DNA of 64,000 nucleotides from Escherichia coli. GTDB taxonomy: Bacteria; Pseudomonadota; Gammaproteobacteria; Enterobacterales; Enterobacteriaceae. Both the position numbers and the translations under genes were made by a program. This document shows positions 38,883 to 39,413 of the stretch, in pieces. A model generated the notes under the pieces. The model did not search any database and was not told where the DNA came from. It worked only from the letters and a program-made list of their open reading frames with translations. The stretch lies in the NCBI RefSeq assembly GCF_030013205.1, contig NZ_CP122648.1, one strand, 5' to 3'. Position 1 is the first letter of the stretch. Each line of letters starts with the position of its first letter.

Positions 38883-39413
38883 TCAGCCGGCGCGCAGACC
38901 GGCTTCGGTGAAGGTGTATTCGTTGATGAGTAGGGCCTCATCCACAGCGGCGTCTGAGGTCAGCCAGTCGTACTCGTTTTCCAGTTGACGGTACAACCAG
39001 AAGGCCAGGTCGCGCAGGGCTTCACTGACTGCGGCTTCCGCATCGGTTGTCATAGTCTGACCAGTCGGACTGTTCCTGGTAACAGTGATACCGTTCATGG
39101 CACTGAACAGTACCCATGTTTCGTCATCATCGTCATCCGGTTCGGGTGCCATAAATGCCCCGCCGTTGTTCAGGGTGTACAGATTCCAGATACCACCACA
39201 GTAGTCTTCGCACAGACGATCCATCCAGCCGAAGACACGGGGCTCCAGGGTCACCCACTGTGGAATGAGGCCAAAATGCTGCGGCCAGAAGCTGATGCGC
39301 TGTTCATCAGGGACGAGGGTGGCAACCAGTTGAGGCGGGTTATTCTCTGATACAGCGGTTAACGGTGGTGAAATCCGCCAGACCACCTTCCTTGATAATC
39401 TGCCAGCCGTCAC
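38883..39413 (-). CDS. KlcA/ArdB-like antirestriction-domain protein; N-terminal 23 codons are flu-derived out-of-frame sequence (chimeric ORF)
   Basis: Contains LVPDEQRISFWPQHFGL and NNGGAFMAPEPDDDD, which I recognise as the prophage antirestriction family (YfjX/YafX-like); the only in-frame upstream start lies in Ag43-derived DNA. Confidence 0.55.
   Translation of the reverse strand: MTAGRLSRKVVWRISPPLTAVSENNPPQLVATLVPDEQRISFWPQHFGLIPQWVTLEPRVFGWMDRLCEDYCGGIWNLYTLNNGGAFMAPEPDDDDDETWVLFSAMNGITVTRNSPTGQTMTTDAEAAVSEALRDLAFWLYRQLENEYDWLTSDAAVDEALLINEYTFTEAGLRAG

Follow-up and report, generated by a model that had tools for sequence, protein, structure and literature searches.

The open reading frame (ORF) of 176 codons that starts with GTG and occupies 38883..39413 on the minus strand of the window (the whole stretch of 64,000 nucleotides of Escherichia coli DNA analysed here) is, on sequence grounds, a deletion scar in which only the first 60% of an ardB gene survives, and is very probably a non-functional, decayed remnant rather than a working antirestriction gene. 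The RefSeq version (38883..39386, 167 amino acids, from the GTG at 39386) carries the name 'antirestriction protein' (WP_074150222.1). All three parts of the ORF lie on the minus strand. Codons 1-18 are Ag43 (agn43) coding DNA read out of frame (39362..39413); ORF residues 19-108 equal ArdB residues 16-105 (39089..39361); and ORF residues 109-176, with the stop codon, equal residues 147-214 of the 214-residue DUF8835 family (38883..39090). We demonstrate this three-part composition, the breakpoints, an intermediate stage and the missing structural elements, and infer the loss of function. As a decay product the chimera is ordinary: both its gene family and its type of island are well known, and RefSeq already lists it, though under a wrong annotation.

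The window is chromosomal DNA of a porcine enterotoxigenic E. coli (ETEC), with 100% identity to ETEC4079 and about a dozen O139-type relatives. The host island, ~37 kb long, is inserted at a tRNA-Ser(GGA) gene (37415..37502, plus strand) that, next to ghrA, delimits the island. To the left of the restriction genes, on the minus strand, lie a YeeP/YfjP-type GTPase gene (40600..41472), situated between the accessory module and the restriction-modification operon, an Ag43 N-terminal remnant (39340..40302), the chimeric ORF, the gene for the YeeU-family antitoxin CbeA directly downstream of it (38465..38833), the cbtA toxin gene (37999..38376) and a DUF5983(N)/DUF4942(C) scar (37652..38002), and then the tRNA. 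The remnant retains the ESPR signal peptide and AIDA repeats of the Ag43 adhesin, whose gene is truncated after ~290 codons; it enters ardB DNA out of frame, reaches a stop at 39340 and is listed in RefSeq as a pseudogene (39355-40227). The DUF5983/DUF4942 scar, the third deletion in the module, is an in-frame ORF of 116 amino acids from which the DUF957 gene is gone and which RefSeq gives as two pseudogene fragments. Rightwards come hsdM-hsdS-hsdR, IS5, a partial hsdM fused to a partial HNH gene and the Hhe anti-phage gene, followed distally by IS remnants with a group II intron, YagK/YfjJ and 'inovirus Gp2' genes and an integrase gene. The YagK/YfjJ-domain and 'inovirus Gp2 family' genes, one intact and two degraded, lie at 62928-63359 (minus strand) and past the window end (ETEC4079 record 3104228-3107144); their products are uncharacterised, replication-initiator-like proteins common to CP4-like islands, and in the literature on YfjJ, YagK and inovirus Gp2 we found no account of their function. 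The island also holds a degraded TOTE-type primase fragment and a DUF3987 gene split by IS1.

That an ORF of KlcA/ArdB type stands at this place, as the initial annotation had proposed from a sequence motif, is borne out: NNGGAFMAPEPDDDD is present at ORF residues 82-96. Pfam PF03230 (Antirestrict) matches the ORF with 36.2 bits against a cut-off of 25 (E 7e-9), and the ArdB segment is near-identical to ArdB of E. coli CFT073 (PDB 2WJ9), so that it cannot be a chance match. The Pfam check proposed at the outset thus gives a match above the cut-off, but one confined to ORF residues 69-109 and to profile positions 1-37 of 92, because the C-terminus of a different gene stands in place of the last 56 residues of ArdB. 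By comparison, the intact ArdB homologue of strain SCZE5, itself near-identical to CFT073 ArdB (2WJ9, E 2.5e-98) and related to KlcA (2KMG, E 8e-21), covers positions 1-92 with 127 bits. PHROG 10132, 'anti-restriction protein', is matched at E 6e-34 over positions 3-84 of 139. At the DNA level the ArdB segment has the same sequence as the ardB allele found in strains E47 and ZH177, and shares 95% identity with the SCZE5 allele. The C-terminal part matches PHROG 5162 over positions 141-195 of 201 only (E 4e-9), short of the full-length match of a DUF8835 protein. The parent of this part has 214 amino acids (227 in SCZE5), matches PHROG 5162 and belongs to a large, well conserved proteobacterial family known at NCBI as 'antitoxin of toxin-antitoxin stability system' and, in more recent records, as DUF8835; sequence searches of Pfam, NCBIfam and the PDB gave no match to it, and the chimera gave none in NCBIfam.

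The chimera is accounted for by deletion from an intact island. A blastn alignment of the window to the intact island of strain SCZE5 (locus L002) gives colinear blocks split by three deletions: 37500-37873 corresponds to L002 2901-3274, 37874-39090 (DUF8835 down to DUF5983) to 4553-5779, 39089-39361 (ardB) to 7181-7453 and 39357-40700 (Ag43) to 8173-9515. At the ardB/DUF8835 junction the coding strand reads ...ATGAACGGTA|TCACTG..., that is GGTA|TCAC, in frame and with a 2-nt microhomology at 39089-39090; the ardB 3' half, the radC/JAB and DUF987 genes that normally follow ardB, and the first 146 DUF8835 codons are lost. At the Ag43/ardB junction, ...CACCGTTAACC|GCTGTA..., there is a 5-nt microhomology, TAACC, at 39357-39361, and ardB codons 1-15, a DUF932 remnant and more of Ag43 are lost. 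The replacement of the N-terminus noted initially is therefore real, with codons 1-18 coming from Ag43 DNA in another frame. Both ardB-side endpoints in the window fall in copies of one 8-mer, GTAACCGC (39357-39361; ardB codon 14 versus codon 106). The Ag43 site (...GGLADF[T/I]TV|N, DNA CCGTTAACC) is joined to ardB codon 16 here and to codon 106 in another genome (protein P0256).

The order of events is best explained as follows. The ancestral CP4-like island at tRNA-Ser/ghrA carried, in this order, Ag43, DUF932, ardB, radC(JAB), DUF987, DUF8835, cbeA, cbtA, DUF5983, DUF957 and DUF4942. Through a first deletion, at microhomology, ardB codon 105 came to be followed in frame by DUF8835 codon 147; a second linked Ag43 to ardB codon 16 and removed the ardB start codon and upstream signals, and a third fused DUF5983 to DUF4942. 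Strain EC556 (pig, Japan) has the same locus, with HsdM, HsdS, HsdR, GTPase, CbtA and CbeA proteins identical to those of the window; its fusion protein has 173 amino acids and the native ArdB N-terminus, and it keeps the DUF932 remnant and intact DUF5983, DUF957 and DUF4942 genes. As read from its sequence, EC556 is a surviving intermediate at the stage of the ardB/DUF8835 fusion, and its state implies that the lineage of the window added two further deletions to an earlier fusion.

The deleted part of ardB contains elements on which the fold of the family depends. In the KlcA/ArdB structure paper, R84 and E86 lie on strand E, and helices 3-5 make up a central bundle in which hydrophobic residues are buried (PMC2836571). 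The break after ArdB G105 aligns with KlcA G82 and lies before strand E and helices 3-5, so the chimera keeps helices 1-2 and strands A-D and is without strand E and the three-helix bundle (ArdB residues 106-161); the complete single-domain fold of ArdB and KlcA (helices 1-2, strands A-E, helices 3-5) is not present. Four of the seven conserved charged residues listed in the same paper (D90, R125, E133 and D142; PMC2836571) are in the lost part. Because strand E and the buried three-helix core are missing, neither ArdB folding nor inhibition of type I enzymes is expected. KlcA aligns with ArdB only from ArdB residue 22, which places the 15 replaced N-terminal residues outside the shared region. 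As these residues lie outside the conserved fold, and the start codon and upstream signals are lost, the N-terminal replacement would bear on expression rather than on the fold. The suggestion that the protein might be inactive owing to its altered N-terminus thus holds as to probable inactivity, but not as to the cause: what decides the matter is the absence of ArdB residues 106-161, a loss that had escaped the initial annotation. AlphaFold2 gave the chimera a pLDDT of 41 and a pTM of 0.28 (32-row mixed alignment), and gave an intact ArdB control, whose structure is solved, a pLDDT of 37 from an equally shallow alignment of 22 rows.

The truncated protein might nonetheless retain antirestriction activity through the N-terminal half of ArdB and so weaken the resident type IC system. 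Ninety ArdB residues, including the acidic DDDDD loop, are kept near-identically, and the mechanism of ArdB is unknown (PMC10149784), which leaves its active surface unmapped. However, central helix 3 and the entire three-helix core are gone (PMC2836571), the native start codon and upstream region are deleted, and the authors of the structure paper left out of their alignment a homologue that lacked helix 5 alone (PMC2836571); moreover, full-length ArdB spares modification, so no self-harm would follow. We regard residual activity of this kind as highly improbable and retain the reading of a decayed remnant.

Compared with its relatives, the chimera is an antirestriction gene by ancestry only. 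Like CFT073 ArdB (PAI II ORF14; 2WJ9), YfjX (CP4-57) and YafX (CP4-6), it sits in a CP4-like, tRNA-associated island with Ag43, cbeA and cbtA as neighbours; unlike them, it is without residues 1-15 and 106-161 and without a native start, and has foreign sequence fused on either side. In vivo, type IA-ID restriction is relieved by the full-length proteins (PMC2836571), whereas the remnant, judged by what it encodes, would not be expected to have this effect. It is homologous to KlcA of IncP plasmids and Bordetella pertussis (2KMG; PF03230) over KlcA ~5-82, but matches only 37 of 92 Pfam positions and is without the C-terminal helical core. Its last 68 residues are the C-terminus of DUF8835 (PHROG 5162) and end at the normal stop codon, but the N-terminal 146 residues of that family are absent.

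The ardB/DUF8835 junction occurs with an intact N-terminus in several allelic backgrounds at 90-98% identity (proteins P0002-P0010), and a fusion found in several backgrounds could be tolerated or even useful. The N-terminal half of ArdB and the C-terminus of DUF8835 might accordingly form a new functional protein under selection, for example a modulator of the CbeA/CbtA module: the junction is in frame, the 173-residue form is found in ~9 sequence clusters of 90-98% identity without internal stops, and high conservation throughout Proteobacteria marks the C-terminus of DUF8835. In at least 14 ETEC genomes the ORF is still open. Yet the fusion is rare, its junction being found in ~20 of 5426 complete E. 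coli genomes, and over 25 other partners, some in frame and some not, are found attached at this ardB breakpoint, which points to a mutational hotspot rather than to selection. The allelic variety can stem from recombination among the several island copies per genome, and the fusion in the window has also lost its start region. Selection for a new protein is therefore very unlikely, and decay remains the preferred explanation. Independent ardB/DUF8835 scars, given in RefSeq as pseudogene fragments, are also present in other copies of the island.

Signals for expression point to a poorly transcribed and translated remnant. The native ardB start codon and ribosome-binding site are absent, the GTG that opens the ORF lies within Ag43 DNA read in another frame, and neither candidate GTG start has a well-spaced Shine-Dalgarno sequence. 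A search of the minus strand from 38300 to 40700 gave no sigma-70-like promoter. A GATC-rich palindromic region (40444..40483), which we take to resemble the control region of agn43 phase variation, lies upstream of the Ag43 remnant, and the Ag43 leader contains a strong terminator-like hairpin at 40259-40286 (12 pairs, then a T-run). Since the GATC-rich control region and the leader hairpin are both kept, the phase-variable promoter is probably intact. The agn43 control region at ~40444-40483 would be the only plausible source of transcription for the chimera, whose expression we presume to be weak.

The neighbouring restriction genes agree with what had been described initially. A complete type IC system does lie 2.3 kb away, the distance from the start of hsdM at 41736 to the chimeric ORF. 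Its operon, of the EcoR124 family, spans 41736..47774 on the plus strand (hsdM 41736-43292, hsdS 43289-44536, hsdR 44658-47774). HsdR (1038 amino acids) matches EcoR124I HsdR (2W00) from 1-1038 on 1-1038 with 2282 bits, and HsdM matches EcoR124II HsdM (7BST chain D) over residues 1-518 with 1153 bits, both at full length; HsdS resembles 7BST chain A chiefly in its conserved centre (best stretch 153-223) and is otherwise diverged. None of the three genes is flagged as a pseudogene in RefSeq, and the system is, by sequence comparison, of type IC and complete. The same tRNA-Ser island also carries, as had been noted, a degraded second system (49164..51471, plus strand), in which a partial hsdM is fused to a partial HNH endonuclease gene, both pseudogenes.

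The initial annotation saw in this arrangement a potential internal conflict, which the evidence does not sustain. CFT073 ArdB, YafX and YfjX relieve restriction by EcoKI, EcoAI, EcoR124I and StySBLI in vivo, with EcoR124I relieved 199-fold by CFT073 ArdB, 7510-fold by YafX and 251-fold by YfjX, and anti-modification values mostly near 1 and at most ~19 (PMC2836571, Table 2). ArdB of R64 behaves likewise against EcoR124II (PMC10149784). ArdB homologues thus block restriction with little anti-modification, so that a resident, methylated genome is not endangered, and E. coli K-12 itself holds yafX and yfjX together with EcoKI (PMC2836571). Among complete E. coli genomes, ardB is matched in ~80%, and the junction of the GTPase gene with type IC hsdM is found in 432-581 of 5426.

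We compared 14 islands, 12 of them with intact hsdMSR. Intact ardB accompanied intact hsdMSR in seven (Ec42, Esc8, W2-5, E47, ZH177, NDM5 and JX4-T), and ardB was disrupted or absent in the other five (the window; EC556 and ECGC74, with the same junction; GCA_022119255, with the complementary deletion; and 2020CK-00188, with an Ag43/JAB fusion); in two further islands (DX6 and SWYHX138) an intact ardB stood beside an IS-disrupted hsdMSR. There is no obligate conflict, given that more of the sampled islands combine an intact ardB with an intact type IC system than show any other state. One might still suppose that selection inactivated ardB because active antirestriction is harmful beside a resident type I system, and the five disruptions among the 12 islands, which represent at least three independent events, together with the intact ardB in both islands with IS-disrupted restriction-modification genes, lean that way. 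Against this, both are intact in seven of the 12, the association of ardB state with hsdMSR state across the 14 islands is not significant (Fisher's exact p = 0.5), disruptions at the same ardB breakpoint are common in islands without restriction-modification genes, and K-12 keeps yafX and yfjX with EcoKI (PMC2836571). Such selection has little probability in its favour. The supposed conflict between defence and anti-defence thus falls away: ardB beside an EcoR124-type system is common and evidently tolerated in E. coli islands.

The breakpoint at which ardB was cut in the window recurs far beyond it. GGT|AAC, between ArdB codons 105 and 106, is an endpoint of at least 28 downstream and at least 22 upstream deletion junctions in E. 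coli sequences. Among the best 120 database matches to the chimera, counted at the protein level, 58 proteins leave ArdB exactly after residue 105 and represent 28 different junctions, with radC, DUF987, DUF8835 (two positions), cbeA, cbtA (two positions), DUF5983 (several) and DUF4942 as partners, in frame in some cases and out of frame in others. The remaining positions in the range 106-160 account for 19 junction types in total, of which five fall at a minor second site, after residue 116. The excess at residue 105 has p ~6e-37 under a uniform null over 56 codon boundaries. On the upstream side, at least 22 clusters among the matches to the C-terminal half of ArdB begin their ArdB homology exactly at N106, preceded by the Ag43 signal peptide, the Ag43 site seen in the window, the GTPase gene, a dynamin-family gene, DUF932, DUF905 or an IS3-family orfA (antisense). 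This evidence is protein-based and comes from the top of two ranked lists, the first of which under-samples breakpoints before 105 and the second those after 106; the contrast within each list is independent of that under-sampling.

Junctions checked at the DNA level fix the site more closely. They read GGTA|TCAC with DUF8835 (the window, L003 and L004), GGTA|CCCGC with cbtA (L020, whose product GGTACCCGC is one base off the GGTAACCGC of ardB), GGTA|CCGTC with cbeA (L022), and ...GGCATT|AACCGCG, ...CTGCCT|AACCGCG and ...ATGGAT|AACCGCG on the upstream side (L006-L008). The breakpoint loci besides the window are L003, L004, L006-L008, L020 and L022-L024. The sole crossover point that fits all junctions is GGT|AAC, and the events are deletions, of up to ~8 kb or more, since all partners are in direct orientation. 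The site falls in a palindrome, CGGT-A-ACCG, where a modest hairpin has its 3' foot; this local hairpin, GGGTACTGTTCA/TGAACGGTAACC, is weak (z ~ -1.7), and no long inverted repeat was found around the site. The ardB alleles are too alike in DNA to reveal extra synonymous constraint there. To our knowledge the site fits no known nic, att, dif, gix or integron core site, nor the recognition sequence of EcoKI, EcoB or EcoR124, and in the literature on yfjX/yafX and on YfjJ/YagK/inovirus Gp2 we found no description of the hotspot.

As to its cause, our leading guess is that the DNA is nicked or broken site-specifically and then joined at microhomology; recombination between primary and secondary sites and stalling of replication at the foot of the hairpin are other options. 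A model of two restriction cuts was rejected, as the ardB site is a GGTNACC palindrome and the partner sites are not, and so was the involvement of an IS, the L008 partner lying inside the IS3-family orfA and not at an IS end. Fixed-end deletions of this type have a precedent: Michel and Ehrlich, in 1986, reportedly described deletions with one end fixed where a rolling-circle nick is made, for the M13 gene II origin and for plasmid pC194. As there, the ardB endpoint is fixed to the nucleotide while the other ends vary and have short similarity to the fixed site; unlike there, the ardB site is inside coding sequence, and an island nickase, origin and replication are hypothetical here. The YagK/YfjJ 'inovirus Gp2' proteins give a faint REP_ORF2-G2P match, and one might speculate, by analogy with M13 gene II, that they are the agent. 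In its fullest form, which we put forward tentatively and consider rather doubtful, the proposal is that ardB of CP4-like islands holds a nucleotide-precise site of rearrangement initiation at GGT|AAC, a target for nicking or breakage, with a rolling-circle-type YagK/YfjJ nickase as candidate agent, that repeatedly seeds kilobase deletions both ways. It would then be a main driver of island decay, with the chimera as one product, and might mark an unrecognised origin or transfer site.

The analysis corrects one annotation, since the RefSeq 'antirestriction protein' is a fusion scar, and the GGT|AAC breakpoint could matter more than the chimera itself. If a specific enzyme causes the hotspot, it would show how 'cryptic prophage' islands erode and possibly replicate or move, and how often the 'antirestriction proteins' in databases are chimeras. 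Automatic names for entries of the ArdB family are unreliable. Among the best 120 matches, many entries named 'antirestriction protein', 'restriction endonuclease' or 'DUF5983 family protein' are chimeras of ArdB(1-105) with cbtA, cbeA, radC, DUF987, DUF5983 or DUF4942.

The restriction genes of the island belong to a wider set of arrangements. When loci L011-L018 are compared with the window, an EcoR124-type operon stands beside a YeeP-type GTPase gene at several integration sites (tRNA-Ser near ghrA, tRNA-Ser near infA, tRNA-Ile near mug, and others), and across the same set HsdS varies from 401 to 423 amino acids while HsdM is constant at 518 and HsdR has 1038 wherever it is intact. Because integration sites and HsdS length vary and the lengths of HsdM and HsdR are constant, this position suggests a mobile slot for defence cargo with swapping of specificity. 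In the window, the stretch 41736-57393 is a defence cluster of the type IC system, IS5 (ISKpn26), the partial hsdM/partial HNH fusion and the Hhe (DUF4011) anti-phage gene, whose product of 1915 amino acids scores 2738 bits to the NCBIfam equivalog. Beyond the cluster, a group II intron (58153-59676, minus strand), which encodes an LtrA reverse transcriptase/maturase of 507 amino acids, sits inside an IS3-family transposase gene, the halves of which flank it at 57614-58030 and ~59230-59660.
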